From assembly GCF_047555085.1 (NCBI RefSeq), contig NZ_CP180230.1, positions 210,001 through 242,000 of the forward strand: a stretch of DNA of 32,000 nt, given 5' to 3'. The DNA is from Candidatus Saccharimonadota bacterium. GTDB taxonomy: Archaea; Nanohalarchaeota; Nanosalinia; Nanosalinales; Nanosalinaceae. The position numbers and the translations under genes were made by a program. A model generated the notes under the pieces. The model was not told where the DNA came from and searched no databases. It worked only from the letters and a program-made list of their open reading frames with translations. Of the stretch, positions 6,143 through 30,418 are shown in pieces (positions within the stretch are counted from its first letter, which is position 1; every line of letters begins with the position of its first letter).

Positions 6143-6147
6143 ACAGT

Positions 6148-7984: not shown

Positions 7985-8027
7985 AAATCCGTCGAGGCCT
8001 GTTTTTCTCTCCTTTTTTCCGGGCCTG

Positions 8028-8037
8028 TTATAAAAAA
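8028..8037 (+). promoter_or_regulatory. TATA box (TTATAAAAAA) about 28 nt upstream of the second GT4 ATG
   Basis: Position and composition fit an archaeal TATA box. The implied leader is very short or absent. Confidence 0.5.
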
Positions 8038-8059
8038 TCTTGATGTATTACTTCTGATT

Positions 8060-9115
8060 ATGAGGATCGGATTCTTCTCCGACAGTTACTTCCCGGAGTT
8101 TGATGGAGTAACTTACACGTTGAAGGCCTGGAAGGAGCGACTGGAGGAGAGAGGTCATGAAGTATACATAATCTATCCTGAGTCGGAGGAGTACGAACCT
8201 CAGGAAAATGAGATACCTGTCCGATCTGTCTCAAATCCTTTCTACAGCGGATACAATATACCGGTACCTGTTTTCAGAGATGAGTATCCTGATCTTGATG
8301 TCGTGCACTGTCACAGTCCGGCAACTCTCGGGATCTCAGGCCTAAGATTTGCACGTAAAAACGATGTGCCTGCGATATATACGCATCACACGCCGATAGA
8401 GGAGTACTTTGAGCAGAGTGTGCACAGCAAGAAAATCTCTGCAGGCCTTGAGAAAATCTATGTTCCTCTGGAGAATTTTTTCCTGGAAAAATTTGACGTC
8501 CTAACCGCTTCTACTCCGGAGCCAAGGAGGCCTGTCGATTTCAGGCAGCTTCCTGTAGGGATTGACATGCAGTTCTTCAGGCCTTCTGAAGAAAAATTCT
8601 TCGATGAAGAGGATGTTGAGAGGCCTGTTGCAGGATACAGCGGAAGGATCAGCATGGAGAAGAATCCCTGTGAGCTTGTGGAGATGGCCGAGAAGTTCGA
8701 TGGTACGGTGGTCGTGGTAGGTGAAGGTCCTCTGAAGGATAAACTTGTTGAAAAAGCACCACAGAACGTTGTATTCCATGATTTTCTTGAAAGAGAAGAT
8801 TTGCCTAAATTTTACTCGGACATAGATGTATTTGTCACAGCATCCACAGGAGACACTCTAGGCCTCTCAACGCTTGAGGCCAACGCATGCGGAACTCCGG
8901 TAGTTGCACCTGATGCAATCCCATTTGAAAACACAATCGAGTCTGAAAACGGCATCCTGTATGATTCAGGCGATGTGGAGGCGTTCAAGAACAAAGCAGA
9001 GAAGGCCTCAGAAAAATCTTTCGACACTCGAAGCGCTGTAGAAGAATATTCCCTCTCAAAAACTATAGACGAGCTTGAAGAGATATATGAGGATAAAAAA
9101 GATGCCAGCAGATAA
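8060..9115 (+). CDS. Glycosyltransferase family 4 (GT-B, group 1)
   Basis: MRIGFFSDSYFPEFDGVTY (GT4 N-terminal domain) and TASTGDTLGLSTLEANACGTPVVAPD (E-x7-E type region). Confidence 0.85.
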   Translation: MRIGFFSDSYFPEFDGVTYTLKAWKERLEERGHEVYIIYPESEEYEPQENEIPVRSVSNPFYSGYNIPVPVFRDEYPDLDVVHCHSPATLGISGLRFARKNDVPAIYTHHTPIEEYFEQSVHSKKISAGLEKIYVPLENFFLEKFDVLTASTPEPRRPVDFRQLPVGIDMQFFRPSEEKFFDEEDVERPVAGYSGRISMEKNPCELVEMAEKFDGTVVVVGEGPLKDKLVEKAPQNVVFHDFLEREDLPKFYSDIDVFVTASTGDTLGLSTLEANACGTPVVAPDAIPFENTIESENGILYDSGDVEAFKNKAEKASEKSFDTRSAVEEYSLSKTIDELEEIYEDKKDASR

Positions 9116-10748
9116 TCTTGAAATCTTCAAAAAAGTTATTTTCCAGCTACCTGATCTAAAGAAGAGCTTTACAGGCCTGATACTTCTTGGAGTGGTTTAC
9201 AGCACACTGCTTTATTTCATGATTTCAGAAGGAACAATATCTGCTTTAAGTCCTGTAGTAATTCCTTTCCTCGCTGTGGCACTTTTTATCGTTCCAGGAA
9301 TCCTTGCTTCGGAGGCCTACAGCTTTTTTCTATCAGGTTATCCGCGCAAATGGGGATACTTTCTATCTCTGGTTAATCAACTTATAATATTTCTCTTTAC
9401 AGTACTTGTAGCTCTTGCAAGTACTTTTACTGAGGCCTGGAATATTATCTGGCTAGGATTAACGACTCTTTACGCCTCGAACTTCTTCGTGCTCGTTCTA
9501 TCCAACGGGCCTGATGTTATGGAGAGGATTTCTGTGTTAAGCATGATACAGCCTGTCATGATTCTCACTGGTTTTCATTTCGTCCTCGGCAGATATCTTG
9601 AGATAGGCCTCATGTCATACCTGTCCAACTTCCTTGTTGTTATAGGTGCAGGAATAGTTTTGCTGCTTGCATTTTATCTTACAGAGTTCCTTGTCGGATC
9701 GAATGTATCTGATATCTCTATGCTATCTCTTGCAACTGCTTTGCTTCAGAACAGGCAGGAAAAACTTGATATCGGGAGAGATGTCAGGCCTGATGTACAG
9801 ACACTGGAGCTGGAGAATTCTTCAGGCCTGAAAAAATTCCTGGTGCCGTGGCTTCATCCTGGGCCTCTGCAGGGATTTGGAGGGGGACAGATAACAAGCA
9901 GGATAATCGAACAGCTCAATAATGACGGGGAGGGATTTTTCCTCCATGTTCCGTCCTGTCACCAGATGGATCCATCTGATCCTGGAGACGCTGAAAAAGT
10001 CCTTGAGGCCTCCAAGTCGCCTGAAAAGTCTTCTCAGGCCTCCAAACTTGTCAAAGGTGATTACGGTTTCTGTACTTTCTACGGTAGGAAGTTAGGAAGT
10101 CAGAAGATTGTGTTCATGGAGGTTGAAGGATTTGATGACTACGATGCAGCAGTTTTCCAGGAGATAATCGACAAGGATGACGTCCTGCTGATAGATCTCC
10201 ATAACCAGCCGAAGACTGTACACGAAGAGGAACTCCGGTATGGTACGACAAAATCAGATGAGATACGTGAGAAACTACAGATGTTCCTGCAAGATCTCGA
10301 AGAGGCCTCCACACAGAGTTACAGTGCAGGATTCGCCATTGATACAAGTCAGAGGCCTGTAATGGCTCTGGTTGAAGAATCAGGGGGTCAGAGGACAATA
10401 CTTTTCGGTGTTGAAGGAAACGATGCTTCGGAAAATCTTCTGGAACTTCAGAGAGAGCTGGAAGATGATTTTGATCGGGCGCTGATGTTTACAACGGATA
10501 CACACGCCAGTATACACGAACTTGCCAGTGAAAGCCAGGTAAGCAAAGAAAAAATCCGTGAGCTTGTCGATGAAGCTGTTGAAGATCTTTCGGAGGCCTC
10601 TGCAGGATTTTCCGTTGGTAAGGCGGAACGGATGAAGTTCCTGACAGATGAATACTTCGGACTGATCTACACGATAAATATACTGGTACGGCTTATACCG
10701 ATAGTACTGGTTGCGCTGTACATACTTCTCGTTGTATGGCTGATCTAG
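9102..10748 (+). CDS. Polytopic membrane protein with a large soluble domain and a C-terminal TM helix; DUF2070-like architecture
   Basis: About 6-7 N-terminal TM helices, an acidic soluble domain of about 290 aa, and a terminal TM (LIPIVLVALYILLVVWLI). The track start at 9075 is a TTG. The ATG at 9102 is preceded by GAGGA (SD-like) 7 nt upstream, and an alternative ATG lies at 9087. The family call is from remembered architecture only. Confidence 0.55.
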   Translation: MPADNLEIFKKVIFQLPDLKKSFTGLILLGVVYSTLLYFMISEGTISALSPVVIPFLAVALFIVPGILASEAYSFFLSGYPRKWGYFLSLVNQLIIFLFTVLVALASTFTEAWNIIWLGLTTLYASNFFVLVLSNGPDVMERISVLSMIQPVMILTGFHFVLGRYLEIGLMSYLSNFLVVIGAGIVLLLAFYLTEFLVGSNVSDISMLSLATALLQNRQEKLDIGRDVRPDVQTLELENSSGLKKFLVPWLHPGPLQGFGGGQITSRIIEQLNNDGEGFFLHVPSCHQMDPSDPGDAEKVLEASKSPEKSSQASKLVKGDYGFCTFYGRKLGSQKIVFMEVEGFDDYDAAVFQEIIDKDDVLLIDLHNQPKTVHEEELRYGTTKSDEIREKLQMFLQDLEEASTQSYSAGFAIDTSQRPVMALVEESGGQRTILFGVEGNDASENLLELQRELEDDFDRALMFTTDTHASIHELASESQVSKEKIRELVDEAVEDLSEASAGFSVGKAERMKFLTDEYFGLIYTINILVRLIPIVLVALYILLVVWLI

Positions 10749-10773
10749 GCTTCCTAGCTGTCCTGTTTCATCC

Positions 10774-10784
10774 AAAAATTAAAT
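10774..10784 (+). promoter_or_regulatory. TATA-like box (AAAAATTAAAT) about 29 nt upstream of the ATG at 10808
   Basis: Supports 10808 rather than 10736 as the true start of the large surface protein. That start yields a clean signal peptide. Confidence 0.4.
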
Positions 10785-10807
10785 GTGTAGGTGCCTCAGT
10801 TATCTGT

Positions 10808-13800
10808 ATGCTCCGTCTCCGGGAACTTTTCTGCCTGGTATTTCTTCTGGGCCTTTTCGCACAATTATCAGTCTCTGCAGGATGGGCTTCACAGGAAACG
10901 GATAAATGCCGTGATATCTGGATTGAAGGCGGCCAGCAGAATCTCCAGGATTTTCCTGTGCCTGTAGGACTGGAGAGTGATCAGCAGATGCTTCAGAGCT
11001 ATCAGGATGTAAGATTTTACAGCAAGAGCTGTGGGAACGGAGGACAGCAGCTTGACTTTGAATTCGAGGAAACAGACAGCTCGGGCATAGAGGCCTGGAT
11101 CAGGGTTCCGGATCTTCCTTCATCAGGTAAAACTGTTTCAGTTTACTACGATAATACGACTGCTGTATCAGATGCCGAAAGCCCGGAGCAGGTCTGGGAT
11201 CAGGATTTTGCAACTGTACAGCACCTTGAAAATGATGTTTCAGGTGACGGAGGAAGTTTTTCAGGATCTACGGAAAATCAGATATTTGGAGAGACTTTAA
11301 ACGGTGTTTCAACTTCTTCAACGGGTATTTTCGATGGAGCATATGATTTTGACGGGAAAGACGATGCCCTGAATTTTTCGAATAGTTTCAGTTACTCTGA
11401 TACAGAGGCCTTCACTTTCACAGCGTTTTTCAACAGGACGGAGGAACTGGACGGTGATGACAGGGTTTTTGGATTTGATTCCGATTCCAGCTGGTCCGTG
11501 TTCCTCGACGGAGGAGGAATTGACGGCGAGGCAGATCCTGTAGTCGGTTTCAATGGATCTCTGCTGCCGTCAAATGTTTCAACTCAGCAAAACAAGTTTT
11601 ACTCGACTACTCTGCGGTATGACGGTGCAGGTACGGCAGATATCTTCGTCAACGGCGTACTGGAAAACTCCACGACAGGTGTTGAATGGGAAAATCCTGT
11701 TGAAGAGTTCCTTCTGGGGGCCTCCGGTGCAACCTCTCTTTCCGGCTCCAATCTGAGTTTTGGAGGCCTTATGGATGAGTTCAGAGTTTCTACTCTGGAT
11801 AGATCGGAGGCCTGGATCGAGGCCTCTAACAGATTCCTGAAAAATGAGAGTGCTGTAGAAACAGGAAATGAGATCGAGTACGTCAATGCAGTGATCCATT
11901 CTCCTAGCAGACAGTACATCGATAATACTTCTGTGCGTCTGGAGGTTTCATGGGAGAATAAAAGCGATTCATGGTTTTACAGTATAGATGATGGGCCTAA
12001 CAGGACGGCAGGCCTTTCGGGTGTTTTCTATACGAATTCGACGAATCATCTGAGAGTCCTGTACGGGAACGGTACTTCGATAAATTTCAGTGAGCAGGCA
12101 AGCGTGGTCGGCGATCAGGCGAATCTGGATTCCGATACATATCTGGAGGTGCCGTTCATCAATACTTCAGGTTATCTGAAGGTGATAGACAGGTTTGGTG
12201 AGACTTCTGTACTTGATACAGGTCAGGATACTTCGATGGAGGTCATCGCTACAGGTGACTGGAATCTGACTGATGACTATGTTTTCTATCCTGATGCAAC
12301 AGCTAGTGACAATCTTAAGCGTGTAAGAGTCGGCGAGCAACCTCAGGCAGTAAGTTCGGGTGTAGGATCGAATGGTGCTCTGGGTGCGGCAGATTTCGAT
12401 GTTGATGGCTCTGAGGAGCTTGTTTTTCTGGGTACATCGAATACTGTGAAGTATCTTGATGAGGGAACTGTAAAATCAACCGGCTTCTCGTCTTTTGGCT
12501 CCAACGAGCAGTACGGGATATCTCAGGTGGCGGATGTGAACAGGGATGGAAAGCCAAGAGTTGCATACGTGACGGGAAGCAACAATCTGGCTTTACTTGA
12601 CTACCAGGGGAACAAAGAGAAAATTAACTCGAACTACGGGCTTGCGGCGAAGACCAGAATTTCACCTGTGGACTGGAAGGGAGATGCCAAAAAAGAAATA
12701 CTTCACATCGGTACGGGCGGAGATATCAAATACCAGTTTTACAACGGAACCACTGAATTCGTTCAACAGGATTCGTCTAACGTGGCCGCGGAACAGTCTG
12801 TAGGCCTGGCATCAGGAAAACAGTTCGAGATAAATACAACTCTGAAAAACTTCTCCGAAGGAAAGCACAACATTACGGTATACGCATTTGAACCGGGAAT
12901 CTATGCACAGGAATCTGTAAGTTTCACTGTCGACGTCTCCGATCCTGAGTTCCAGAACCTCGCTGATAACGTGACCGACAGCTTCTACAGCCCTGATACC
13001 GCAAATATTTCCGCCGAGGCCTACGATCAGTACTCGGGCCTCAGTGAAGTGAAACTTTCCACAAATGAAACAGGAAGTTTCTCGAATAAGACAGTCTATA
13101 ATTCACCTCAGGAGTTTGAAAATATTTCCGATGAATTCGTCCTGTCTGAATTCTTCTGGAAAAACACCAGTTTCACCGGAGAACTTGGATACCGGCTCTG
13201 GGCCTCAGACGCAGCTGACAATACGGCATACACATCTAAAAACTCTTTTGAAGTCCACAGAATCGATCTTGAGGCCTCTAATGTTTCATTCAATACTACT
13301 GAGCCTGTTGAAGGCCAGGACGTGAATCTACAGTTTAACGTCAGCAATGTCGGAGGTGCAAACGCCACCGCCAATATAACTGTCGTTGAGGAGGAGTACA
13401 ACGGTTCTGCATGGGAGTTTGTCTCAAATTCAACCAGGGAGGAAGAGTTAGAGGCCTCTGGGTTCAACATAGTGAACTTCACTGTAACTCCTGATACAGG
13501 GCCTAACAGGTATACGGCCTATGTTGATTCTGATGATTCTATAGATGAGAAGAACGAGTCCAACAACAATATCTCTTCTATGCTGGATGTTTCAAGCTAT
13601 CATCTGAAGTACGGGAACAGTAACTCGGCATTGACTCTGGGAAGCGGACAGAAACTGAAGAGCTGGACACAGTCCGATCCAAGAGGAACGATATTCTACT
13701 CGGATCTTGAGGCCTCTTACAGTGTAGATGACTTGAGGCCTCTCAATGAATCAGGTGATCTCTCTGAGGCTGACAAGGTTCTCGGCATGAAGGGTCACAA

Positions 13801-14122
13801 CGACTCGCTTTCCAGTATATACGACGAGGATCAGGATGGTTTTGCTGATACTACAGGTTGCATAGATATAGCAGGGGAGACACAGTGCCAGATCCCGCTG
13901 GTTAATTCCACAAATACATCTAATTTCCAGACAGGTATTCTGTATGACGGTGCAGGTTCCGGTGATTTCAATGGTTCGCAGGACGTAGTTTTCGCTACTG
14001 AGATAAAGGATGAGAAGCAGGGAAGGTACGGGTTTTACAATTACGAGATAAAGGTGCCTTCGCCGCTTTCAAGCCAGTATTCGCCGAGCGATTTCGTGGA
14101 TCTTCGTGTTGAACTTAAGTAG
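10808..14122 (+). CDS. Large secreted multidomain surface or adhesin-like protein: DUF2341, LamG (Laminin_G_3), FG-GAP-like repeats and CARDB
   Basis: - Signal peptide MLRLRELFCLVFLLGLFAQLSVSA.
- DUF2341-like LQDFPVPVGL...DVRFYS...LDFEFEE...AWIRVPDLPSSGKTVSVYYDN.
- LamG-like GIFDGAYDFDGKDDALNF ... LMDEFRVSTLDRSEAWIEASNRF.
- FG-GAP-like GAADFDVDGSEELVF and VADVNRDGKPRVAYV.
- CARDB-like DLEASNVSFNTTEPVEGQDVNLQFNVSNVGG...DEKNESNNN. Confidence 0.8.
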   Translation: MLRLRELFCLVFLLGLFAQLSVSAGWASQETDKCRDIWIEGGQQNLQDFPVPVGLESDQQMLQSYQDVRFYSKSCGNGGQQLDFEFEETDSSGIEAWIRVPDLPSSGKTVSVYYDNTTAVSDAESPEQVWDQDFATVQHLENDVSGDGGSFSGSTENQIFGETLNGVSTSSTGIFDGAYDFDGKDDALNFSNSFSYSDTEAFTFTAFFNRTEELDGDDRVFGFDSDSSWSVFLDGGGIDGEADPVVGFNGSLLPSNVSTQQNKFYSTTLRYDGAGTADIFVNGVLENSTTGVEWENPVEEFLLGASGATSLSGSNLSFGGLMDEFRVSTLDRSEAWIEASNRFLKNESAVETGNEIEYVNAVIHSPSRQYIDNTSVRLEVSWENKSDSWFYSIDDGPNRTAGLSGVFYTNSTNHLRVLYGNGTSINFSEQASVVGDQANLDSDTYLEVPFINTSGYLKVIDRFGETSVLDTGQDTSMEVIATGDWNLTDDYVFYPDATASDNLKRVRVGEQPQAVSSGVGSNGALGAADFDVDGSEELVFLGTSNTVKYLDEGTVKSTGFSSFGSNEQYGISQVADVNRDGKPRVAYVTGSNNLALLDYQGNKEKINSNYGLAAKTRISPVDWKGDAKKEILHIGTGGDIKYQFYNGTTEFVQQDSSNVAAEQSVGLASGKQFEINTTLKNFSEGKHNITVYAFEPGIYAQESVSFTVDVSDPEFQNLADNVTDSFYSPDTANISAEAYDQYSGLSEVKLSTNETGSFSNKTVYNSPQEFENISDEFVLSEFFWKNTSFTGELGYRLWASDAADNTAYTSKNSFEVHRIDLEASNVSFNTTEPVEGQDVNLQFNVSNVGGANATANITVVEEEYNGSAWEFVSNSTREEELEASGFNIVNFTVTPDTGPNRYTAYVDSDDSIDEKNESNNNISSMLDVSSYHLKYGNSNSALTLGSGQKLKSWTQSDPRGTIFYSDLEASYSVDDLRPLNESGDLSEADKVLGMKGHNDSLSSIYDEDQDGFADTTGCIDIAGETQCQIPLVNSTNTSNFQTGILYDGAGSGDFNGSQDVVFATEIKDEKQGRYGFYNYEIKVPSPLSSQYSPSDFVDLRVELK

Positions 14123-14215: not shown

Positions 14216-15895
14216 ATGAATCTTAAGCGACTCGCAATTTTCAGCATCTTTTTGGTGCTTCTATCCGGTTTTGCAACGTCAGCATTAGTAAGTAACTCCG
14301 AAAGCTGGAAGGACAACTCCCTGGTCATAGCCAGAAGCCATTTCGAGGGCGAGGAAGTGCACGCAGTGACCAGTCTATCCGAAGGACAGCTAATCGAGGA
14401 GATGCTCAGAGATAACAGAAGCCATACTGTTTACGAGCCAGAAAACGGCGATGATGCCGTATGGGAGAACTATGCTAACTATCTAAGGAACGAAGGAAAG
14501 CAGGACATCTCGTCCACATTCCTCAACTGGCAGGAAAGCCAGTACGATTACTATTCTGACGTAGAGGAGGAAGTAGAAGGTATCGTAGTCATAAGGCCTG
14601 GATTTGCCATGGATACTCTTTCTGTTTATCCTCAGATAATCAACGGGAATTACTGGCCTATCTACTACAACGGAGATGACACAGATCGATTCCTTCAGCG
14701 TCAGGCCTCTGATAAAGATGTAATTTTCTACGGAGAGTACATTGAGCAGCCTTGGAGAGGCCTCGACTCGAATTATACTATTATATCTGAAGGTTCAAAG
14801 GAGGAGAACAATGTCAGGCTTGTAGGACGTATCGCACAGGAATACGACAGTGAATCTGCGATCGTTGCAGGTGACAGCTATCTTGAGAAAGGTTTCATGA
14901 AGAAAGGAGATCCTATTATCCTCGGTCAGAGTATAGAGGATACTGCACAGGTTATCAGGGCACTTGATGTCTCAACGGTTGAAGTTATCGGTGCAGAGAA
15001 CGTTGGGTTCGGTAACAGTCTTGAAGATCAGGTTGGAGATAGTACTACAATTATAGCAAAGTTTGGAAGACGATTCACAGGAGCACAGGGACTTGACTCG
15101 ACTTATCCTGTTAAACAGATTCCTGCTACGCCTGTAGTACGTGATATCTCTGTTAGTTCCGTCAAGGTATCCGATTCAGGGAACATGGTTGAGCTTGTAT
15201 TCGATAACGAGGGAACTATTGATACTGCGATAAATCTTTCAGCAGTCGCTTTCTCTTCCGGCAACCAGGAAGAGCTTATCAGCCGACAAGATGATATAAT
15301 ATCACGTCCTGGACGAAATATCACGATAGACTTTAACTCAAGTATAGGATTTTCACCTGAAAACGCAGAGGTATCTTTCACGTATCAGGGTTCAGAAGGA
15401 ATAAGCTCTCGTTCATTCAATGTTGAGAACGTTGATTCTTGGGCTGCCTCAGAGATCTCTCTTGAAGATGTATACTACTCTGAGCCTCAGGAAAGGCTTG
15501 CGATAGAGATACGCAATCAGGGAGAAAACACTACTTACGTTGGAGCGCAGATACATGATCTGAAAGTAATCAACAGATCTGTAAATCCTACAACAGATCA
15601 GATAGTTGAGATAACTCCAGGAGATACTGAAACAGTATACGTCGACGCATACATGTCGGAAGAGGCGTTGGAGCGTAACAACCAGCTTGATCTAGCTGTT
15701 ACGGCAGGAGATGCAGTACACACCTCCAAAGATCTCCACAGCTTTGAGGAAGTACAGCTAGAAGTAAGAGAAGGAGGAGTGCTCGTAGTAATTGTACAGT
15801 ATGGACCGTACGTAGTGATCCTGCTGATCCTACTGCTGCTTCTTTACCTCATCAAGAAGAGGAGAGACCAGAAAAAGTACAGAGGCCTGAAGTAA
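14216..15895 (+). CDS. Secreted surface protein with two CARDB/NEW3-like beta-sandwich regions and a C-terminal TM anchor
   Basis: Signal peptide MNLKRLAIFSIFLVLLSGFATSA. C-terminal anchor VVILLILLLLLYLIKKRRDQKKYRGLK. Regions resembling Ig/CARDB (ISVSSVKVSDSGNMVELVFDNEGT and LAIEIRNQGENTTYVGA). Confidence 0.7.
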   Translation: MNLKRLAIFSIFLVLLSGFATSALVSNSESWKDNSLVIARSHFEGEEVHAVTSLSEGQLIEEMLRDNRSHTVYEPENGDDAVWENYANYLRNEGKQDISSTFLNWQESQYDYYSDVEEEVEGIVVIRPGFAMDTLSVYPQIINGNYWPIYYNGDDTDRFLQRQASDKDVIFYGEYIEQPWRGLDSNYTIISEGSKEENNVRLVGRIAQEYDSESAIVAGDSYLEKGFMKKGDPIILGQSIEDTAQVIRALDVSTVEVIGAENVGFGNSLEDQVGDSTTIIAKFGRRFTGAQGLDSTYPVKQIPATPVVRDISVSSVKVSDSGNMVELVFDNEGTIDTAINLSAVAFSSGNQEELISRQDDIISRPGRNITIDFNSSIGFSPENAEVSFTYQGSEGISSRSFNVENVDSWAASEISLEDVYYSEPQERLAIEIRNQGENTTYVGAQIHDLKVINRSVNPTTDQIVEITPGDTETVYVDAYMSEEALERNNQLDLAVTAGDAVHTSKDLHSFEEVQLEVREGGVLVVIVQYGPYVVILLILLLLLYLIKKRRDQKKYRGLK

Positions 15896-15967: not shown

Positions 15968-16318
15968 TTAGAAGAAAGGCACGTACCCAAGCACCGCAAG
16001 TATAAAGTACGTCAAAAGGATTATCTCGACTGAGAAAACTATGAATGTCGGTGTGTCGACTTCTTCCTTCCAGTCGCTCTCTGAATTCGCCTCAAATCTA
16101 TTATCTGTCTCAGATGTCCCGTAACTATCGGAACCCCAGATAGGTGAATCTTCTCCAGTTCGTTTACTGTGGAAGGCATCCAGATTTTTCTCCGTCTCCG
16201 TAAGATGTAACTTTTTCTCTATATCAGTAGCTACTTCCTGTGCTTTATCCTCTATCTTCTCCTTCCATGTTTCATCTTCATCGAAAAAGTCCTTTCCTTT
16301 ATTTCTCCTTTTATTCAT
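15968..16318 (-). CDS. Small tail-anchored membrane protein (116 aa), last gene of the surface-protein operon
   Basis: Charged N-terminal region and a single C-terminal TM (FIVFSVEIILLTYFILAVLGYVPFF). Its ATG overlaps the upstream stop by 8 nt. Confidence 0.55.
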   Translation of the reverse strand: MNKRRNKGKDFFDEDETWKEKIEDKAQEVATDIEKKLHLTETEKNLDAFHSKRTGEDSPIWGSDSYGTSETDNRFEANSESDWKEEVDTPTFIVFSVEIILLTYFILAVLGYVPFF

Positions 16319-18716
16319 AGAACCGCCTCCTTCCCCAGTAAGCCGTGAACACAGTCCATATCAGGACAAGTACTGGCAGTATGTTCGAAGTCAACTCCTC
16401 TGTCAGAGGCCTTTCCATAACTCTTATTTGGACTGGAGCAATAGCAAGATTTTCCTTTTTATCCGAGGAAAACACGAAACTTCCCTCGCACACACCTGGA
16501 TCGCCTGTGACAACTGTGTAATTGACAGGCTTTGACTCTCCTGTATCGAAAGAACTCGATCCTGTAACATCACGGATACAGTTTTCAGCATTCAACACTG
16601 AGGCCTCCACGTTCTCCAGATCGAAGTCTCCAGAGTTAAGCAGATCAAATCTGAGATTTCTAACTGATCCCTCTGTGATATTTACTCTGTACGGGCCTTC
16701 AAGCACGTTAAGATCTCTCACCTTTCCACGCGGAACAACTTCAACATCCACAGTTGCATTAGCCGGTGCGACAAAAGTGCCGTTGATATATGTGAAGGCC
16801 TCTACGGGTATACTGTACTCGCCGATAATTTCGCTCTCATAGACGTCCACTAGGAAGCTTCCGGAAACGTTTTCGCCGGGAAAGATCTCGTCGAAACTTT
16901 CTCTAGAGCTTTTCCATCCATCTCTCATACTTCCATTGACTGTGACGTCATTTGCTGATACATTACCCACTGCGGCAAGCGAAAAGTTCAGCTTGAACGT
17001 TGTTCCCTGCTGAACCCTGATATCCTGACTCGTCACAGTTAACTCAAGCCTTGGAACACCTGCAGGGGAAAGGCCCGCTGGTACCCATGGAGGCCGTCCG
17101 TCTCCTACGCCATCAGGAGGGCCTTCACCAGGTCCTCCGCCTGGAGGCGGACCAGGAGGGAATGCTCCGCCACCTCCGCCCCCGCCGCCGGAGCCACCTC
17201 CACCTTCACCGGGAGATTCCTCTTCATCGTCTTCTTCATCTTCTCTGTACCGGGTGTATGGTGCGAAGACGGAGAAACTGCTTATGCTTTCATCCGTGAA
17301 TATCTCGCCTTCTGAAGTTGTAGCTGAAAGATTCGTGTAACTCCATCCATCACTGTATTCAGACAGGTAGATAAATTGAGGATCTTGATCGCTGTAACTG
17401 AAAGACAGATTCTCGATAAGGCCTTGAGCCGAGGTAGATGAGATATCGATCCACTGGCTGATATTCTCTGTACCGGAAGGATCAGGAGGAATATTATCGA
17501 CATCGTCGATCTCTATATCCAGGCCTTTAACGGAGACATCCGCCGTAGCAAGCTCAGAGTCCTCAAGATTGATACTGGAACCTGAGACTGATTCGATCTC
17601 TGAACCGTTGTTGACAATTTTTACGTTCGATACCGATGCTGTTGAATTATTGGCGTACACTCCAAGACTGTTGCTCTGGATAGAGTCTCCGTTCACTGTT
17701 ACATTTTCAGAGTCCTCGATGCAGAGGCCTCTGCTGAACTCCTGCACTCTAAGATTCTTCACTTCAATGTCCTGAGAACCTGTGATCTTCAAACCACAGG
17801 CCTCTAAGTCGGAGAAGTTTGCATCTCCGTCAAGAGTACTGTTGGCGAAATCGATTACAGAGTTACGGGAGTCCTCGATTTTCAGGCATGAACGTTCTCC
17901 GCCACCTGCTCCGTGAGGATCTTTGTTGAAGCTACTGTCATCCATAATGTAGTACCTGTTATCGCCGGTAAGAGTTTCACAGGGATCAACGGAGATAGCT
18001 TTCAATGCAAGTATGCTGTTGACGTAAACCTCATCGCCGCCCATCAACCTGAGATCAAAACTTCTGGACTCCATAAACGAGGCCTCGTTTTCATCCAGTA
18101 CCGTTCCATCTCTCTGAACTGAGATGAAAAGCCTGTCAGAAAGACCTCTGCTTTCATGTATAACCTCTCCAGAGTTCAGAATCTCTGTAACTTCCAGCTC
18201 TGTAAGGCCCTCTGAATCAAAAACTACAGGCCTCACAGTAAAGTTCCCCTGAAAAATCCCTCCTGATACATCAGTCAGATTTTCTACACCGTTTTCAGAT
18301 TCAAGGCCTGCATAAAGCTTTCCAGGGTACAGAGCTTCAAAGCTCGAGATCTCAACCTCTACAGTCCCGGAGTTCTCCTTCAGCAGAGCAGGCTGTGTAA
18401 GAACAGGCCTCGTGAAGTTTCCTGAAAGAGATCCATAATAGAGCTGAAGCCGCTCACCTGTAATATTAGCTCCTTCTCCATCAAAGTTCAGAAATATGTT
18501 CGGAGACACCAGAGAATTATCTGTAAAGGAGTAGCTTCCTACCTCCTCAGGCCTCTCAAATCCATCCGGAAAATCCGTGTAAAATCCCTGAGGCTCAATT
18601 ACATCGAATCCCGGAGACGAAAGAGTCTCATTGTTATCCACAGTTGAGACATCCAGGCCTGAGACAGTGCTGGCCAGCAGTATCAGCGCCAGGCCTGTCA
18701 AGATTTTTCTATTCAC
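16311..18716 (-). CDS. Secreted right-handed beta-helix (PbH1/NosD-like) surface protein with an acidic and Gly/Pro linker, a CARDB/NEW3-like domain and a C-terminal TM anchor
   Basis: - Signal peptide MNRKILTGLALILLASTVSG, GTG start.
- Beta-helix repeats of about 22 aa (GLKITGSQDIEVKNLRVQEFSRGLCIEDSENVTVNGDSIQSNSLGVYANNSTASVSNVKIVNN).
- Linker EDEEDDEEESPGEGGGGSGGGGGGGGAFPPGPPPGGGPGEGPP.
- C-terminal anchor ILPVLVLIWTVFTAYWGRRRFYE. Confidence 0.8.
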   Translation of the reverse strand: MNRKILTGLALILLASTVSGLDVSTVDNNETLSSPGFDVIEPQGFYTDFPDGFERPEEVGSYSFTDNSLVSPNIFLNFDGEGANITGERLQLYYGSLSGNFTRPVLTQPALLKENSGTVEVEISSFEALYPGKLYAGLESENGVENLTDVSGGIFQGNFTVRPVVFDSEGLTELEVTEILNSGEVIHESRGLSDRLFISVQRDGTVLDENEASFMESRSFDLRLMGGDEVYVNSILALKAISVDPCETLTGDNRYYIMDDSSFNKDPHGAGGGERSCLKIEDSRNSVIDFANSTLDGDANFSDLEACGLKITGSQDIEVKNLRVQEFSRGLCIEDSENVTVNGDSIQSNSLGVYANNSTASVSNVKIVNNGSEIESVSGSSINLEDSELATADVSVKGLDIEIDDVDNIPPDPSGTENISQWIDISSTSAQGLIENLSFSYSDQDPQFIYLSEYSDGWSYTNLSATTSEGEIFTDESISSFSVFAPYTRYREDEEDDEEESPGEGGGGSGGGGGGGGAFPPGPPPGGGPGEGPPDGVGDGRPPWVPAGLSPAGVPRLELTVTSQDIRVQQGTTFKLNFSLAAVGNVSANDVTVNGSMRDGWKSSRESFDEIFPGENVSGSFLVDVYESEIIGEYSIPVEAFTYINGTFVAPANATVDVEVVPRGKVRDLNVLEGPYRVNITEGSVRNLRFDLLNSGDFDLENVEASVLNAENCIRDVTGSSSFDTGESKPVNYTVVTGDPGVCEGSFVFSSDKKENLAIAPVQIRVMERPLTEELTSNILPVLVLIWTVFTAYWGRRRFYE
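17051..17250 (-). repeat. Low-complexity, GC-rich coding tract (poly-acidic, poly-Gly and Pro-rich linker)
   Basis: ggaggcggaccaggaggg...ccacctccgcccccgccgccggagccacctccacc. Locally much more GC-rich than its surroundings. It encodes the inter-domain linker of the 801-aa protein. Confidence 0.85.
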
Positions 18717-20425
18717 GTTACCGCGCCCCAGAACTCTGCGAATACTGTGTAGACTCCGTTCATAACTGCTTTAACGTGCGTATCAAGATTTGGGAGTTCT
18801 GAAGTTCCTTCACCGTCCAGCCGTCCTGGATCAGCTACTTCAAGAGGGTAAGTATCTGTAAGTGAGCCATCGACTATGAAAGTAAGATCGTTTCCGTTGC
18901 TCGATCCTCTGAGGTTTATCGAGTAATCGATGCTGTCCTGTACCGCTGTATTGTCGTACCTTTCTGAAAGAAGGATGTTGCCGGTAGGACTCATAGTTAA
19001 GCTTGCTGTACCGTTGCCATCCGTCTGGAATCTCATGGTTTTTTCCACATCTGTGAAGCTTCCATCACTTATCTCCTGGCTTGGAGCAAATGCAGACATT
19101 CCATCGTTTTCAGTGATGGCGATCTGTGAGTTTTCCAGAGTACTGTTGTCTGAATTCTCCATGACAACAGTAAGATTGTACGGTACACCGGGATCAGGGA
19201 ACTCTACCTCCTTTTCATCCACTTTTTCCCCGTTGACATAGATCTCAGGGAACGTGACAGGCCTCAACTGGAAGGAACGTGTTTCAACATTGTTTTCAGA
19301 TATCTCCTGAACACTGTTCGACGTATCTGCCTCCACTTCGATACTGTAACTACCCGATTCCTCTGAGGCCTCCCACGTGTACTGGAATGCTTCCTGATTC
19401 CCCGGAGAAATATCCTCTGTAACGGTGAAAACTCTGGTGTCGAAAACTTCTCCATTACTTTTTATCTGAGCCTCAACGTAGAAATCAGTTGTCACAGGCA
19501 CGTTACCGGTGTTCCTGACTGAGAAACTTACTGTCTGATTCTGAGAGTAGTAAACAGGATCTCTGCTTGCGGAAAGCCCTGTAACATCCAGATCTGCTCC
19601 TATGCTCACCTGATCGAAACTTTTCCCGTTTGCCAGCGCATAACGCGTGTAAACATTTTGATCATTGACTTCGCTTGCCGAAATATCAAAACTGAATGTT
19701 TCAGGGAATGAATTAGACGTCTTTTTCTTCACAAGGCCGTTGCAGCTTCCACCGTTTGAATCACTACATGCGCCGATTATTAGAGGCCTGGAACTGCTGA
19801 TACCGCGGCCTGAAGCACCGGGATCAAAGCTTCTGGTTCCTATATCAGAGTTTACGGTGATACTGTCAAGATCAACGTTCAAACTGTTGCTGCTGTAATC
19901 ATAGTTTATGTTTCCGGAGTAGGATCCGGAAAGACTTGAACCTGTATCAACAAAACTTGGATTGGAGCCATCCGAGCTTTCAGAGACTATCATTGAGGCC
20001 TCTGCCGGAAAAGCTGCAATCTTGGTTTCTGGAGTACCTGATATTTCTGAAGGTGAGACTGTCAGGCCTCCTATAGAAGTTCTTTTACACGTGTTGCCGT
20101 TAAAGCTTACTTCTGTATCTGCCAGGCCCAGATTCTGATCGCTGCTGTAGCTTACAAGCTGATTTTCTCCATCCATGAAGTACTCCAGTCCTACATAGTA
20201 ATCCGCAGGTACACTTCCTGAAGTATCACAGAGCATCAGTCCTACATCAGGATAGGCCTGAGCATCCTGGTAGTATGCTGTTGTATCAGGTGATCCCCAG
20301 GTATAGATCAGGTTCTGAACTTCGCCGGGTCCTGACTCAACTACGTATCCCTGTAGCTCTGCAGCTCCTCCGGATAAAAGTAGAAATACAGAAAAAGCCA
20401 GCAGTATCTTTCTTTTATCTACCAT
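18713..20425 (-). CDS. Secreted surface protein with a CARDB domain and a module paralogous to the upstream gene
   Basis: Signal peptide MVDKRKILLAFSVFLLLSGGAA. CARDB-like DVTGLSASRDPVYYSQNQTVSFSVRNTGNVPV...EVEADTSNSVQEISENN. Shares the GxPYNLTV module and a C-terminal helix motif with 20434..22050. Its stop overlaps the next gene's start (GTGA). Confidence 0.8.
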   Translation of the reverse strand: MVDKRKILLAFSVFLLLSGGAAELQGYVVESGPGEVQNLIYTWGSPDTTAYYQDAQAYPDVGLMLCDTSGSVPADYYVGLEYFMDGENQLVSYSSDQNLGLADTEVSFNGNTCKRTSIGGLTVSPSEISGTPETKIAAFPAEASMIVSESSDGSNPSFVDTGSSLSGSYSGNINYDYSSNSLNVDLDSITVNSDIGTRSFDPGASGRGISSSRPLIIGACSDSNGGSCNGLVKKKTSNSFPETFSFDISASEVNDQNVYTRYALANGKSFDQVSIGADLDVTGLSASRDPVYYSQNQTVSFSVRNTGNVPVTTDFYVEAQIKSNGEVFDTRVFTVTEDISPGNQEAFQYTWEASEESGSYSIEVEADTSNSVQEISENNVETRSFQLRPVTFPEIYVNGEKVDEKEVEFPDPGVPYNLTVVMENSDNSTLENSQIAITENDGMSAFAPSQEISDGSFTDVEKTMRFQTDGNGTASLTMSPTGNILLSERYDNTAVQDSIDYSINLRGSSNGNDLTFIVDGSLTDTYPLEVADPGRLDGEGTSELPNLDTHVKAVMNGVYTVFAEFWGAVT

Positions 20426-20433
20426 GATTGATC

Positions 20434-22050
20434 TCAGTTTCCAGCTACGAACAGGCTGTTCAGCACAGGCCTGATCGCGTTAACTCTTTTCTTGAAAGAT
20501 TTTGAGTTAGGGACTCCAGCGCTCAATCCATCTGTCGGCGAACCGCATGTAGATCCCTTAACACTGAGATTCGTTTCGCCTAATAAATCACCTTGGGAAT
20601 CAAGCACCTCGATATCAAGCTGATCATCGCCATCCTTGCTGACTGTAGGAGTGAAAACTATACTCGAATCAGCCGCGTAAGGACTTCCTCCTGATTCCAG
20701 ATGCAAAGTATCTGCGTTGCGGGCCGGCAACATCACAAGATGGCTTCCACGTTCCTCAAGACTGAAGTAGGAGGCCTCTGAATCAGTTACATCAACGATA
20801 TACGGTATGCCGCGTACAACTTCGAAACTCTCGTTCCCTGTAACATCCAGTCTGTAGGCCTCGTCGGAGTTTACATTTGAGAAGAGACAGTTGGCTACAG
20901 GCCTCAATCTGTTGACGCCTTTCTTGTAATCTGTTTCAAGATCTTCAAATCCTTTCTCCGCAGGACCTGAATCAGTAAACTCTATATTGCTGTTTTCTAC
21001 ACTCAATGGAACGCTCTGAATTGTTTCGCCGTCGCTGTACACGTCTACTGTCAGATTATAGTTTGAAGGAGAGTTGTATGCTGTAGGTGTATACATCAGA
21101 CTTCTCGAGCCGTTGACTGTCTCTGTTATGATCTGGGCCTCTGAACTGTAGTCCTGGGAGATAGCAGGTGTGAAAAGATTGTTTCCCTCCCGTTCCGTGA
21201 TCCTTATCCCGGTATCCACAGGACTGTAATTATCAAATACGTCTTTAGTGATCACGGTAAGATTGTAAGGCCTCCCGGCATACGGAAAGCTTCGGCTTTC
21301 AACTCCATCTACAAGAGTAGTCACTCTTACAGGATCGGACTCTGAAAGCATATAGAAACTGTAATCATCATCTATCCGGGGCAGCATCAACTGGTAATCA
21401 CAGTCTTCTCCATCATAACAGCTACTGTAAGAATCTATACCAGCAACAAATACCGGCTGAGTGGTGCCATTTATATCATACCCGAGCATGTAATAATTTA
21501 CGCCGCCGTTCAAAGTCGTCTTCAAGGCCTTGAACTCGCTTCCAAGCAATTTGATATTCTCTGTATCCTCAAAAGTTTTCTCCGGATTATCAGTTACCTC
21601 ATCATAACTCGTCCCGTTCGGATAGAAAACAGGGAAATCCTCTTCATCGAAAAGGCCTCCAGCATCAAGATCGGAGAGCGAAAGATTCCCTACTCTCCCT
21701 GATTCAAACTCTTCATCATGAAAAGGCAAAGCACCGAAAAAATGCCTTCCATCGTTCTGGCCTTCAAGAGAAAGATCAGTCACACTCCCGGAACGCGAAT
21801 CTCCTGCATAGAAATAATCGATCGGCGATGCAGTCTCCTCCTGAAAACCACTGATATCTCCTGAAACACCAGCCCAGTTACTGGAAACAGTAGTAGGCCC
21901 GAGTATCGCCTGGACAACATGCCCGGCCTCGAGACTGATACTTCCAGCGATACCTATCCCCAGAAGCACAACAGCTGTAACACCTAAAAACATCAATTTC
22001 TCCGCATCCAGCTCCAGACGCTGATAATCAACATCCTCCTCAATATCCAT
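20434..22050 (-). CDS. N-terminally membrane-anchored surface protein, first gene of the operon, with duplicated modules
   Basis: Acidic N-terminus followed by a TM helix (LMFLGVTAVVLLGIGIAGSISL). The N-terminal domain is homologous to the 227-aa protein at 22191..22874. Two GxPY(N/I)(L/V)(T/D)V beta-sandwich-like modules are each followed by a KKxVNxxRPVxNxLF motif. Confidence 0.8.
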   Translation of the reverse strand: MDIEEDVDYQRLELDAEKLMFLGVTAVVLLGIGIAGSISLEAGHVVQAILGPTTVSSNWAGVSGDISGFQEETASPIDYFYAGDSRSGSVTDLSLEGQNDGRHFFGALPFHDEEFESGRVGNLSLSDLDAGGLFDEEDFPVFYPNGTSYDEVTDNPEKTFEDTENIKLLGSEFKALKTTLNGGVNYYMLGYDINGTTQPVFVAGIDSYSSCYDGEDCDYQLMLPRIDDDYSFYMLSESDPVRVTTLVDGVESRSFPYAGRPYNLTVITKDVFDNYSPVDTGIRITEREGNNLFTPAISQDYSSEAQIITETVNGSRSLMYTPTAYNSPSNYNLTVDVYSDGETIQSVPLSVENSNIEFTDSGPAEKGFEDLETDYKKGVNRLRPVANCLFSNVNSDEAYRLDVTGNESFEVVRGIPYIVDVTDSEASYFSLEERGSHLVMLPARNADTLHLESGGSPYAADSSIVFTPTVSKDGDDQLDIEVLDSQGDLLGETNLSVKGSTCGSPTDGLSAGVPNSKSFKKRVNAIRPVLNSLFVAGN

Positions 22051-22140
22051 GACTCTACAGGCAAAAATGCGTTAAACTCGGCTTTAAAGACTGCCAAAAA
22101 ATCACAGAGAATATCAGCTATAGGCCTCTACTGAGATTTT

Positions 22141-22161
22141 AAGGAAAAAGAAAGAAAAGGG
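22141..22161 (-). terminator. Oligo-T rich terminator downstream of the 227-aa gene (reads CCCTTTTCTTTCTTTTTCCTT on the minus strand)
   Basis: A pyrimidine/T-rich run beginning about 30 nt after the stop at 22191. Archaeal termination typically uses oligo-T tracts. Confidence 0.45.
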
Positions 22162-22190
22162 AATAAGTAAGATTGCTAGTGATGGTTGCT

Positions 22191-22874
22191 TTAACCAAGC
22201 TCTAGGTACATGTTGAATGAGTTGACACTGTCGTCCTCTGCAGGAAGAATCAGCTGGTAATCAGCTGAATCTCCGTTAAAGGCTGTTGCGTCTTCTCCAA
22301 CGATTCCTGTAAATACAGGATTCTTTTCGCTGCTGTTGTCCAGTAGAGCGACTGTAGACCATGCTCCGGAGCCAGCGTCGTTGTTTGTCATTGCTGTTTC
22401 TCCTTTGTAATCCTCTCCGTCTAGAGTGATGGTCGTGTTACCGCTCGTAAAGGTGTTGACTGCATTATCGCTTCCGGATAGGAAGGAGTAGTAGCTATCA
22501 ACATCTTCAGCTGTACCGTTTGTAAGGTTGGTCCAAGTGACTGATGCACTTGAAGCGAAAACGTTCTCAGCAGATGCGTCCCAGTTGTATAGGACACTAC
22601 CGCTGTCTCCGGTTCCCAATACAAGGCTACCGGTTGCGTTTCCGTATAGACCAGCCCAGCTGTCTGTTGACTGTTCAGCAGAAAGATTTGCTGCAGTCAC
22701 GTTACCACCGTCTAGATCAACGCTCTGCTCCTGTGAGTTGAAATACTCATCAAGAGTCTGTCCTTCATCGATCGTTGTTCCAGCCGGTGTGTTGTCCTGG
22801 GCTGCAGCCGCTCCCGCGGCTAGAATTAGTGAAGCAACCATCGCAAGTACTGCGATGCTCTTGTCTAACTTCAT
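22191..22874 (-). CDS. Small secreted protein (227 aa), paralogue of the N-terminal domain of 20434..22050
   Basis: Signal peptide MKLDKSIAVLAMVASLILAAGAAAA. SWAGLYGNATGS matches NWAGVSGDISG in the larger protein. NPVFTGIVGEDATAFNGDSADYQLILPAEDDSVNSFNMYLEL matches QPVFVAGIDSYSSCYDGEDCDYQLMLPRIDDDYSFYMLSE. Confidence 0.8.
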   Translation of the reverse strand: MKLDKSIAVLAMVASLILAAGAAAAQDNTPAGTTIDEGQTLDEYFNSQEQSVDLDGGNVTAANLSAEQSTDSWAGLYGNATGSLVLGTGDSGSVLYNWDASAENVFASSASVTWTNLTNGTAEDVDSYYSFLSGSDNAVNTFTSGNTTITLDGEDYKGETAMTNNDAGSGAWSTVALLDNSSEKNPVFTGIVGEDATAFNGDSADYQLILPAEDDSVNSFNMYLELG

Positions 22875-22900: not shown

Positions 22901-22908
22901 TTTATAAA
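22901..22908 (-). promoter_or_regulatory. Consensus palindromic TATA box TTTATAAA about 30 nt upstream of the ATG at 22874
   Basis: Perfect TTTATAAA at the canonical distance for a leaderless mRNA. The same octamer at the same distance precedes the secreted-protein gene at 26966. Confidence 0.6.
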
Positions 22909-24728: not shown

Positions 24729-25265
24729 TTACTCCCAGTTTCTGTAAGCCAGTATCAGGATGATGATGAAGGCTGTAAGCGCCATCATCGGGATTGTGAT
24801 GTAATCGAAGTAGAATGTGTACTTTGTCTCGCATGACACCTGGCTGATGCTGCATCCGCTGCTCTGGATGCGGCTCATCATCTGGATTGCGTAGTGATAG
24901 ATGCTCAGGCCTGCCCCGATAACTGTCATCGGCACGACATAGTCAGAGACGTTTTTCTCATTGAACAGCAGAGAAGCACCAAGCAGTACTACCAGAGGAT
25001 ACATGAAGATTCTCTGGAACCAGCAGAGTCTGCAAGGAGTCCATCCAAGAACGTTCGACAGGAAGAGGCTGCCCAGAGTAGCTACAGTAGCTACAATCAG
25101 GCCTATCTCTCTGTAACGGGAATCAATTTTTTCCTCGAAGGCCTCAACGTAGTCGTCTATAGGTAAAGTGAAGAATCGCTGCAAGGCCTTTATTCCAAGG
25201 TATCCGATTATCGAGATATCAAGTAGTAGTATAACGTATGCCAGGTACTCAACTAGGAATTCCAT
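24729..25265 (-). CDS. DsbB/BdbC-family disulfide bond formation protein with an extra N-terminal TM segment
   Basis: TPCRLCWFQRIFMYPLV matches the BdbC CxxCWxQRxxMYP motif. A second Cys pair lies in SSGCSISQVSCE. Multiple TM helices. Confidence 0.75.
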   Translation of the reverse strand: MEFLVEYLAYVILLLDISIIGYLGIKALQRFFTLPIDDYVEAFEEKIDSRYREIGLIVATVATLGSLFLSNVLGWTPCRLCWFQRIFMYPLVVLLGASLLFNEKNVSDYVVPMTVIGAGLSIYHYAIQMMSRIQSSGCSISQVSCETKYTFYFDYITIPMMALTAFIIILILAYRNWE

Positions 25266-29416: not shown

Positions 29417-30418
29417 CTACAGATCCTGTCTCATGAATAATGTGTATGCGCCTGTGAAGGCCAGCATTGTCTCGCTCAGGAGAAAGATCAGGTAGCCGAA
29501 CGCAGATCGGAGATTCTCCCATACAGTAGGCTTGAGGCCTGTCTCTCCGTCGTAGTCTGTCCCCAGCATAGTTGAGGCGAAGTTCTGGAAGCTTGTCGTT
29601 GCAGAGAATTTTGATACGCTGTCAACGAATTTTTCTCTCCTGTCCAGGATCTGCTGTCTGCGATCCTGTTCGTCCTCCATGCCGGGAGGCCTTGCTACTG
29701 CGACGTCTCCAGAGCTTCCGGATACGGCAACGCTTCTTGCAACGTGGCCTCCTGATGTTCCTGTATCCATTGGATAGATTGTTCCTGCAGCCATATTCGC
29801 CAGTAAAGGAGTTGCAAGGAACAGGAGAAGTATCACGAGGCCTGAGATAAGTGATTTCCAGCTCGAGTTCAGTATGACTGATAGAAGTGTTCCAAGTCCG
29901 AAGAAAAATGCCATGTATACTATACTTCCCTGCCAGAGAAAAATTAAGCGGAAAACCTGTTCTGCACTCGGCAAAACACCTGTAAGGTATATTGCAAGGC
30001 CTGATGATGCTGTAAATGCTATCAGGAGTGCTGTGGCTACTGTGAAAAGGCCTGCGACAAATTTTCCGTTGATTATCTCGTCCCGGTATACAGGATATGA
30101 TAAAAGCAACTCGATTGTTCCCTCCTCTCGTTCCCGTGAGATAGAATCATAGCTCAACAGAAGAGCAAGTATTGCCGCTGCAAGAGGCAAGTTAAGGCCT
30201 ACAAGAGGCCCGAATACATCGATTAGAGATGGCTTTTCCGGTACAGGCCCGTAACTGTTTCCGCCTTCAAAGTTTTCCATCTGCTGATTGTACTCGTCGA
30301 CACCCATGTACACCGATCCCATGGAAAGTGCAAGGAAAAGGCCCAGAATCAACAGAAACTTTTTGCTTGAAAAACTATCCTCGATCTGTTTCCGGCCTAT
30401 ATCCCACATCGAGCCCAT
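29417..30418 (-). CDS. ABC-2 type transporter permease
   Basis: N-terminal cytoplasmic segment, a first TM, a large extracytoplasmic loop and about 5 further TM helices. It directly abuts the ATPase gene stop. Confidence 0.75.
   Translation of the reverse strand: MGSMWDIGRKQIEDSFSSKKFLLILGLFLALSMGSVYMGVDEYNQQMENFEGGNSYGPVPEKPSLIDVFGPLVGLNLPLAAAILALLLSYDSISREREEGTIELLLSYPVYRDEIINGKFVAGLFTVATALLIAFTASSGLAIYLTGVLPSAEQVFRLIFLWQGSIVYMAFFFGLGTLLSVILNSSWKSLISGLVILLLFLATPLLANMAAGTIYPMDTGTSGGHVARSVAVSGSSGDVAVARPPGMEDEQDRRQQILDRREKFVDSVSKFSATTSFQNFASTMLGTDYDGETGLKPTVWENLRSAFGYLIFLLSETMLAFTGAYTLFMRQDL

Follow-up and report, generated by a model that had tools for sequence, protein, structure and literature searches.

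A conserved four-gene operon of Candidatus Nanosalina sp. VS9-1 and its possible role in holding D1-domain proteins on the cell surface

The 32-kb window analysed here (contig NZ_CP180230.1, positions 210,001 to 242,000) contains an operon of four minus-strand genes, g538, g570, g801 and g116. The sequence comes from Candidatus Nanosalina sp. VS9-1, and g538 is 100% identical to a hypothetical protein of that organism in the NCBI database (ACK3SF_01325). Judging from synteny, domain sharing and patterns of conservation, the explanation we prefer, at somewhat less than even probability, is that the four proteins are co-translated and form a membrane base complex of the Nanosalina lineage, on which proteins with a particular domain are docked. 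This domain, named D1 here, is common to g538, to the product of the upstream gene g227, and to the C-terminus of g1128, a large adhesin-like protein. An earlier, sequence-only reading of the window had described the four-gene operon, but overlooked g227, the domain that ties it to g538 and g1128, and the convergent pair g1128–g559. With these the operon, which is not self-contained, makes up a conserved surface locus of about 12 kb. What deserves attention is above all D1, and its connection to DPANN adhesins that lack an anchor, more than the four genes alone.

The operon, its products and its conservation

The four open reading frames (ORFs) and their junctions lie where the sequence-only reading had placed them: g538 at 20434–22050 (538 aa), g570 at 18713–20425 (570 aa), g801 at 16311–18716 (801 aa, with a GTG start) and g116 at 15968–16318 (116 aa). 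Read directly from the sequence, the g538/g570 junction consists of tga, 8 nt (gatcaatc) and atg; g570 and g801 share a start/stop overlap of 4 nt (acGTGAat), and g801 and g116 overlap by 8 nt (ATGAATAA). A TATA-like box (ctttaaag, 22082–22089, minus strand), picked by eye some 36 nt ahead of the g538 start codon, is a candidate promoter for the operon, and a T-rich tract (22141–22170, minus strand) past the g227 stop codon is a candidate archaeal terminator between g227 and the operon. Three plus-strand ORFs of 82–106 aa occur antisense within g801 and g570 (16522–16842, 17051–17299 and 18930–19241). Each is nested entirely within a conserved gene, and in all likelihood they are shadow ORFs rather than true genes.

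The order 538-570-801-116 is kept in seven other nanohaloarchaeal loci (L001, L002, L003, L004/L005, L006 and L035), the last found through a homologue of g227 and the rest through orthologues of g538. The g538 orthologues of L001–L006 are 29%, 35%, 46%, 50% and 64% identical to that of the window. Every locus encodes in series proteins of about 535 aa, about 575 aa (with a CARDB domain), 770–950 aa and 65–115 aa, and a flanking gene for iron-sulfur (FeS) assembly is also kept. The 570/801 overlap is 4 nt in all loci except L035, where a gap of 29 nt is called; the final small gene overlaps the 801-type gene in every case, and overlaps or gaps nowhere exceed 35 nt. Loss of synteny, which the sequence-only reading had named as grounds for its own refutation, is therefore not seen within the Nanosalina lineage; both the order and the tight coupling of the genes are maintained. 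The family is a narrow one. Relatives of g538 form 22 clusters among 5.8 billion proteins and occur in two GTDB genomes; the scan of GTDB species genomes used one narrow peptide pattern, which found two loci and says little about absence elsewhere. In distant loci of the D1 family, no homologue was detected of g538 (beyond D1), g570, g801 or g116. By these comparisons the operon is a unit specific to the Nanosalina lineage, neither DPANN-wide nor haloarchaeal.

Topology was called from Kyte-Doolittle hydropathy over 19-mers, and agrees with the arrangement proposed earlier: an N-terminally anchored g538, a secreted g570, a C-terminally anchored g801 and a tail-anchored g116. In g538 the only hydrophobic segment is at aa 20–38. 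It is preceded by a conserved acidic tail (LE.D.EK), and for this reason is probably a signal anchor rather than a cleaved leader. The protein, a surface protein of type II, is laid out as a cytoplasmic tail (1–19), a transmembrane (TM) segment (20–38), the g227-like D1 (about 55–237), an immunoglobulin (Ig)- or macroglobulin (MG)-like domain D2 (241–351), a helix (369–394), a beta domain D3 (398–511) and a C-terminal helix (516–537). Structure predictions were made for monomers of g538 and g227. The AlphaFold2 model of g538, with a predicted local distance difference test (pLDDT) score of 81, likewise has a TM helix, a disordered linker, D1, an Ig/macroglobulin-like domain, a long helix, a beta domain and a C-terminal helix, and a Foldseek search with it returned generic Ig/MG matches only. 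There is no Pfam match to g538, and a profile search of PDB sequences gave nothing meaningful. The C-terminal helix is its best conserved part, with a mean pairwise identity of 65% vs 45% for the whole protein.

The sole hydrophobic segment of g570 is N-terminal and signal-like (aa 7–25), and there is no TM helix. An N-domain (27–270) is followed by a CARDB domain (277–380), a further domain (394–482) and a conserved amphipathic helix at the C-terminus (about 545–570). CARDB (PF07705) scores 38.7 bits against a Pfam cut-off of 22.7 (E 1.2e-9), and the profile of g570 orthologues matches the solved CARDB domain 2l0d (E 1.6e-5); on this sequence evidence it is the sole secure family assignment among the four proteins. 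The two proteins are also related to each other, aa 244–324 of g538 (in D2) being paralogous to aa 394–482 of g570 (hhalign 97%, E 7e-11). The C-terminal helix of g570, which is 53% identical vs 44% for the whole protein, resembles two conserved helices of g538.

A signal-like segment (aa 5–23) begins g801, and a C-terminal TM segment (aa 775–793), with a conserved motif ILP..VLIWT, is followed by the basic tail GRRRFYE. Among the large proteins of the operon g801 evolves fastest, and it has large lineage-specific insertions. Its variable distal region includes the possible beta-helix: aa 278–380 reach 22.0 bits on Pfam NosD, below the cut-off of 23.6, and 18.9 bits on the NCBIfam NosD model, where the cut-off is 300. 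The two generic folds named by the sequence-only reading thus fare differently, CARDB in g570 passing its threshold and the beta-helix of g801 being plausible, not established. Two Ig-like domains are present as well, with a sub-threshold NPCBM_assoc-like match at 569–640. A low-complexity linker rich in Gly and Pro (aa about 497–555; 17052–17228, minus strand) occurs in all orthologues with variable length and sequence, and is flanked by an acidic run that contains the only tandem repeat of the region (17221–17244). This linker probably swamped the word index in the homologue search, which returned six matches only, and orthologues of g801 were drawn from the syntenic loci instead. A profile search of PDB sequences with g801 gave nothing meaningful. 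The smallest protein, g116, has one TM segment (aa 92–110, VEIILLTYFILAVLGYVPFF), ending six residues before the C-terminus and 51% identical among orthologues vs 22% for the charged, poorly conserved N-terminal part. In each of the seven related loci an orthologue of 65–115 aa is found at the corresponding place.

None of the four products corresponds to a characterised enzyme in searches of Pfam, NCBIfam and PDB sequences, which bears out the earlier expectation. There are 22 N-x-S/T sequons in g801, and invariant cysteines are even in number (4, 4 and 6 in g538, g570 and g801). A DsbB-like gene lies 2.7 kb away (24729–25265, minus strand) and is also present in the syntenic L003, L004 and L005; together with the even-numbered cysteines, it suggests extracellular disulfide bonds. 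Signal peptides and the many sequons, added to these features, suggest an extracellular location.

The D1 domain and its family

About 140 nt upstream of the operon lies g227 (22191–22874, minus strand), which encodes a secreted D1 protein of 227 aa. A TATA box (tttataaa, 22901–22908, minus strand) is recognisable by eye about 30 nt before its ATG. A TATA box of its own, together with the T-rich tract past the stop codon, argues for separate expression of g227. A g227 orthologue precedes the g538 orthologue in every locus except L001. There, the position is taken up by a gene that runs into the g538 orthologue by 4 nt and whose product, over 3,041 aa long, has a g1128-like C-terminus. The signal peptide of g227 (MKLDKSIAVLAMVASL.LA.G.AAAQ) is nearly invariant among orthologues that are just 40–65% identical overall. 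It was considered as a type IV pilin leader, a possibility rejected on the grounds that leaders in the wider family are of the signal peptidase I (SPI) type and that the window is devoid of pilus machinery. None of five proteins tested matched the class III signal-peptide or pilin models of Pfam and NCBIfam, and no ATPase or platform gene of the PilB/PilC type is found in the 32-kb window.

The g227 family aligns with aa 16–234 of g538 (hhalign 98.7%, E 4e-16), and the D1 domain of g538 proper (aa 55–237; 21340–21888, minus strand) has paralogues in g227 and at the C-terminal end of g1128 (blastp 3e-7, hmmsearch 1.9e-15, hhalign 98.7%). With a D1 profile, g227 scores 3e-66, g538 1.9e-15 and g1128 3e-9. 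The last is a secreted adhesin-like protein of 1128 aa, encoded on the plus strand (10736–14122), with DUF2341, FG-GAP and CARDB domains (Pfam) and D1 at aa about 924–1108 (blastp, hmmsearch); it has no TM segment apart from the signal peptide. By the same profile g570, g801, g116 and g559 are not members, and the idea of a D1 domain within g570 or g801 was accordingly dropped.

The conserved motif of D1 is GGN[IV]T..NL[ST]....T..W.G.YGN.[TS]G..L, followed by a terminal DYQ..VP....Y.[FLW][YW].EL. G57, T70, W73 and G78 are each present in at least 113 of 114 members (G57 in 113), N58 also belongs to the most conserved motif, and up to three conserved sequons fall within it. The AlphaFold2 monomer model of g227 (pLDDT 71) is confident from residue 70 on, residues 1–69 scoring below 50, with the GGN[IV]T strand among them; the g538 segment that matches the conserved strand (aa 34–54) is disordered in its model. 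A motif so conserved, and lying in part within a low-confidence strand in g227 and a disordered equivalent in g538, fits a pattern expected of an intermolecular contact, as far as the predicted models go.

D1 is a large family. The profile of g227 orthologues, run against 1.84 billion cluster representatives, finds 1,205 within a limit of E<=1e-3, of which 788 reach E<=1e-10. Most members are 215–255 aa long, with ordinary Sec/SPI leaders (ending in AxA-type sites such as AFA, ALA or VSA), and many are non-halophilic in composition. Among the 150 best matches are 22 multidomain members (353–3,167 aa), and in these D1 ends no more than 4 residues from the C-terminus. Ten of the 22 were scanned against Pfam; eight had matches, all of the surface type, with LamG in three, beta-helix/NosD in four and PKD in two, as well as GLUG, F5/8-type C and PLD. 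Of the named members, one comes from a metagenome-assembled genome (MAG) of Micrarchaeota and one from a MAG labelled Omnitrophota. No match to the family was found in Pfam, NCBIfam or PDB sequences, nor by Foldseek against the PDB and BFVD, and a literature search turned up no description of the domain or of this gene cluster.

Distant D1 loci were sought in metagenomes with a subgroup alignment. D1 genes occur there as tandem paralogues. Two of the distant loci also carry a tyrosine-tRNA ligase that scores far higher on PRK08560 than on tyrS; the former we take to be the archaeal-type model for this ligase, which hints at an archaeal origin of these two loci. In the AT-rich loci L021, L026, L032, L033 and L020, a giant protein (1,100–2,300 aa) and two D1 paralogues are followed by a protein of about 320–335 aa, which has an N-terminal hydrophobic segment and no detectable relation to the operon proteins.

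A second gene recurs beside D1 in distant loci. The window gene g559 (14216–15895, plus strand) is convergent with the operon and encodes a 559-aa protein that has a signal peptide as well as a C-terminal TM segment. Its family combines these with a pair of Ig-like domains and an N-terminal half of about 300 aa; neither g559 nor the family has a Pfam match, and the profile search of PDB sequences gave no meaningful match. Homologues adjoin D1 genes in four distant loci with E-values of 1e-57 to 1e-97 (5e-22 for a shortened ORF of 181 aa in L013), and those at L008 3716–7147, L009 13076–14761 and L018 8182–9921 are in non-halophilic loci. From its position in these loci, g559 may be a general partner of D1 proteins. 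Since distant loci carry D1 and g559-type proteins without the four genes, the former two appear to be the widespread core, and the operon a lineage-specific addition.

Possible assembly at the cell surface

In the model we prefer, the four genes would form one transcription unit, and their translationally coupled products would be grouped in the cytoplasmic membrane and on its outward side. The N-terminal helix of g538, the C-terminal helix of g801 and the tail of g116 would serve as anchors, and secreted g570 would be kept attached by its conserved C-terminal helix. The C-terminal helices of g538 and g570 and the TM segment of g116 are the best conserved parts of these proteins, and such segments are what would be expected of subunit contacts. 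The base complex would hold D1-domain proteins on the cell surface, with the D1 of g538 directly above the membrane. The same fold recurs in g227, probably strongly and separately expressed, and at the C-terminal end of the anchorless g1128. D1–D1 contacts (a homotypic oligomer or a donor-strand-type polymer) could tether both g227 and D1-tailed adhesins, and the distal part of g801, which evolves fast and includes the possible beta-helix, would be exposed on a flexible stalk of Gly and Pro. Host attachment, also proposed by the sequence-only reading, is a plausible use of such an apparatus in a nanohaloarchaeon.

Several observations weigh against this model. Apart from D1, the folds are generic modules (Ig-like, CARDB, beta-helix) of a sort that independent surface proteins have as well. 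Gene overlap is frequent in compact archaeal genomes, and is no proof of stoichiometric assembly. The four proteins diverge at unequal rates, L006 being 64%, 59%, 42% and 34% identical to the window for g538, g570, g801 and g116. D1 proteins do not as a rule depend on the operon, because the distant D1 loci examined are without detectable homologues of all four proteins; there, the conserved partner is the g559 family.

An alternative is that the products are independent surface glycoproteins or adhesins, linked by co-transcription and nothing more, each acting alone (for example on different host or environmental glycans) and without a defined complex. The modules that can be recognised are indeed generic (CARDB, MG/Ig-like, sub-threshold NosD and NPCBM_assoc), divergence is uneven, with g801 bearing its large insertions, and overlapping genes are common in small archaeal genomes. 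However, independent action does not readily explain why order and close spacing (overlaps or gaps of 35 nt or less) persist across the seven other loci, where identity falls as low as 29%, or why conservation peaks in TM and helical segments, not in exposed domains; and g116 is no adhesin by itself, because it has almost no extracellular part. We regard independent proteins as rather unlikely.

A second alternative is a thread-like filament that is Sec-dependent and ATPase-independent, with g227 as the major subunit (joined by donor-strand exchange through its N-terminal tail), D1-tailed large proteins as tip adhesins, g538 as a terminal subunit anchored in the membrane, and accessory or base roles for g570, g801 and g116. 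The comparison is with Sulfolobus acidocaldarius, where the thread cluster comprises Saci_0404-0408, with the subunit Saci_0406 and its paralogue Saci_0405 (PMC9715654). Both systems have a small beta-rich, Sec/SPI-processed subunit with a conserved mature N-terminus (P30, G32 and A33 in g227) and heavy N-glycosylation (here conserved sequons), a structurally related paralogue next door, no dedicated ATPase (here none for secretion in the window), and accessory membrane proteins in a conserved neighbourhood (PMC9715654). In line with a filament, the predicted model of g227 leaves an N-terminal stretch of about 40 residues not confidently folded, the gene next to g227 encodes a paralogous D1, D1 paralogues occur in tandem in distant loci, and adhesin-type proteins carry D1 at the C-terminal end, an arrangement like that of two-domain tip adhesins. 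On the other side, there is no detectable similarity of sequence or fold between the thread cluster and this locus: Foldseek against the PDB, thread, ABP/TasA and cannula structures included, gave no match (best E 0.024 for g227 and 1e-3 for g538, to unrelated proteins), and the D1 family profile had no match among PDB sequences. A further difference is that in g538 the paralogous domain is combined with a TM anchor and other domains, and that it is also joined to the C-termini of large adhesin-like proteins. The filament itself is hypothetical. We judge this alternative to be distinctly improbable.

Least likely, and very doubtful, is a surface-layer (S-layer) or envelope lattice built of g801 or g559 (C-terminally anchored) or of abundant g227, with the others as stalk or anchor in the manner of SlaA/SlaB: the C-terminal TM segments and basic tails of g801 and g559, the sequons of g801, the near-invariant g227 signal peptide, glycosyltransferase genes at 6148–9115, and an S-layer-like pattern seen on nanohaloarchaeal cells by cryo-electron tomography (no protein being assigned to it in the part of the source drawn on here) would suit it, but no S-layer family of Pfam or NCBIfam is matched, the C-termini of g801 and g559 have no PGF-CTERM motif, g801 evolves fastest among the large proteins, g227 is small for a lattice protein, and the S-layer proteins annotated in cultivated nanohaloarchaea are products of other genes (PMC10266531).

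Returning to the base complex, its closest parallels are partial. SlaA/SlaB and the C-anchored S-layer glycoprotein of haloarchaea likewise consist of glycosylated proteins rich in Ig-like domains, held by a single TM helix (their own or that of a partner), with a secreted anchorless partner. Here, in contrast, there is no homology to the Pfam and NCBIfam S-layer families and no PGF-CTERM/archaeosortase signal, and four to five distinct subunits are present, a tail-anchored mini-protein included. With CARDB surface proteins (PF07705; 2l0d, 3idu, 2kl6) the locus shares a bona fide CARDB domain in g570 and one in g1128. However, CARDB is one of at least four modules of g570 and is uninformative on function, and the other three operon proteins have no significant match. 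SPEARE-type giant proteins combine a very long Ig-repeat ectodomain with a VirB4/TraG-like ATPase domain (PMC10266531). They and the LamG giants occur in the same organisms with the same presumed role in host contact, and the giant protein of L001 overlaps the g538 orthologue; but the operon proteins have neither a VirB4/TraG ATPase domain nor long Ig-repeat arrays (Pfam, NCBIfam). They are thus candidates for holding giant surface proteins on the cell, not members of the SPEARE/LamG class.

Archaeal envelope assemblies of Ig-like modules with single-helix anchors are known, but neither this combination of subunits nor the D1 family is. For DPANN archaea it is an open question how adhesin-like proteins, large and often without an anchor, are displayed and held in place, and what the envelopes consist of; this limits the understanding of host attachment. 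The locus offers a conserved set of five to seven surface genes and a very large unannotated family, D1, which takes three forms: a small protein that is secreted, a membrane-proximal domain in an anchored protein, and the C-terminal end of proteins of the adhesin type. If D1–D1 docking is true, the anchoring of such proteins would be explained and concrete targets provided; if it is false, the operon would be one more set of lineage-specific archaeal surface glycoproteins. A bolder proposal, which we think unlikely, is that D1 is a DPANN-wide, Sec-exported, ATPase-independent and self-associating module, which forms polymers or homotypic oligomers and tethers anchorless LamG, PKD and beta-helix adhesins, the operon being the membrane socket of the Nanosalina lineage and part of the machinery by which the haloarchaeal host is held.

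Neighbouring genes

The convergent side of the locus varies among relatives. A second convergent module is seen in L002 (7685–11718 and 11832–12470) and L003 (16476–21230), and consists of a D1 protein (212/227 aa), two g559 paralogues and a protein of about 160 aa. The version in the window is reduced to g1128, with D1 fused at the C-terminus, and g559. Genes for VWA, DUF58 and MoxR (AAA_3) proteins, none of which occur in the window, stand beside the convergent D1/g559 module in relatives; the stretches are L001 15555–16857, L002 12747–13071, L003 21338–21617, L004 18075–19112 and L009 14688–15872. Proteins with a DUF5752 domain, also absent from the window, flank the D1/g559 genes in L008 and L009, and one of them is tail-anchored (L008 7156–7653).

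Upstream of g1128, a gene for a DUF2070 membrane protein overlaps its start by 13 nt, the two spanning 9075–14122 on the plus strand. Before this gene are two glycosyltransferases of the GT4 type, one of the GT2 type, and an LPG_synthase_TM protein; the genes at 4837–9115 suggest a glycosylation or envelope neighbourhood. At the other end of the window (29417–31977, minus strand), an ABC-2 permease, an ABC ATPase and a surface protein with NPCBM_assoc and MG2 domains are encoded in a row, resembling the arrangement of the SalXY transporter and ‘S-layer’ protein of cultivated nanohaloarchaea (PMC10266531).

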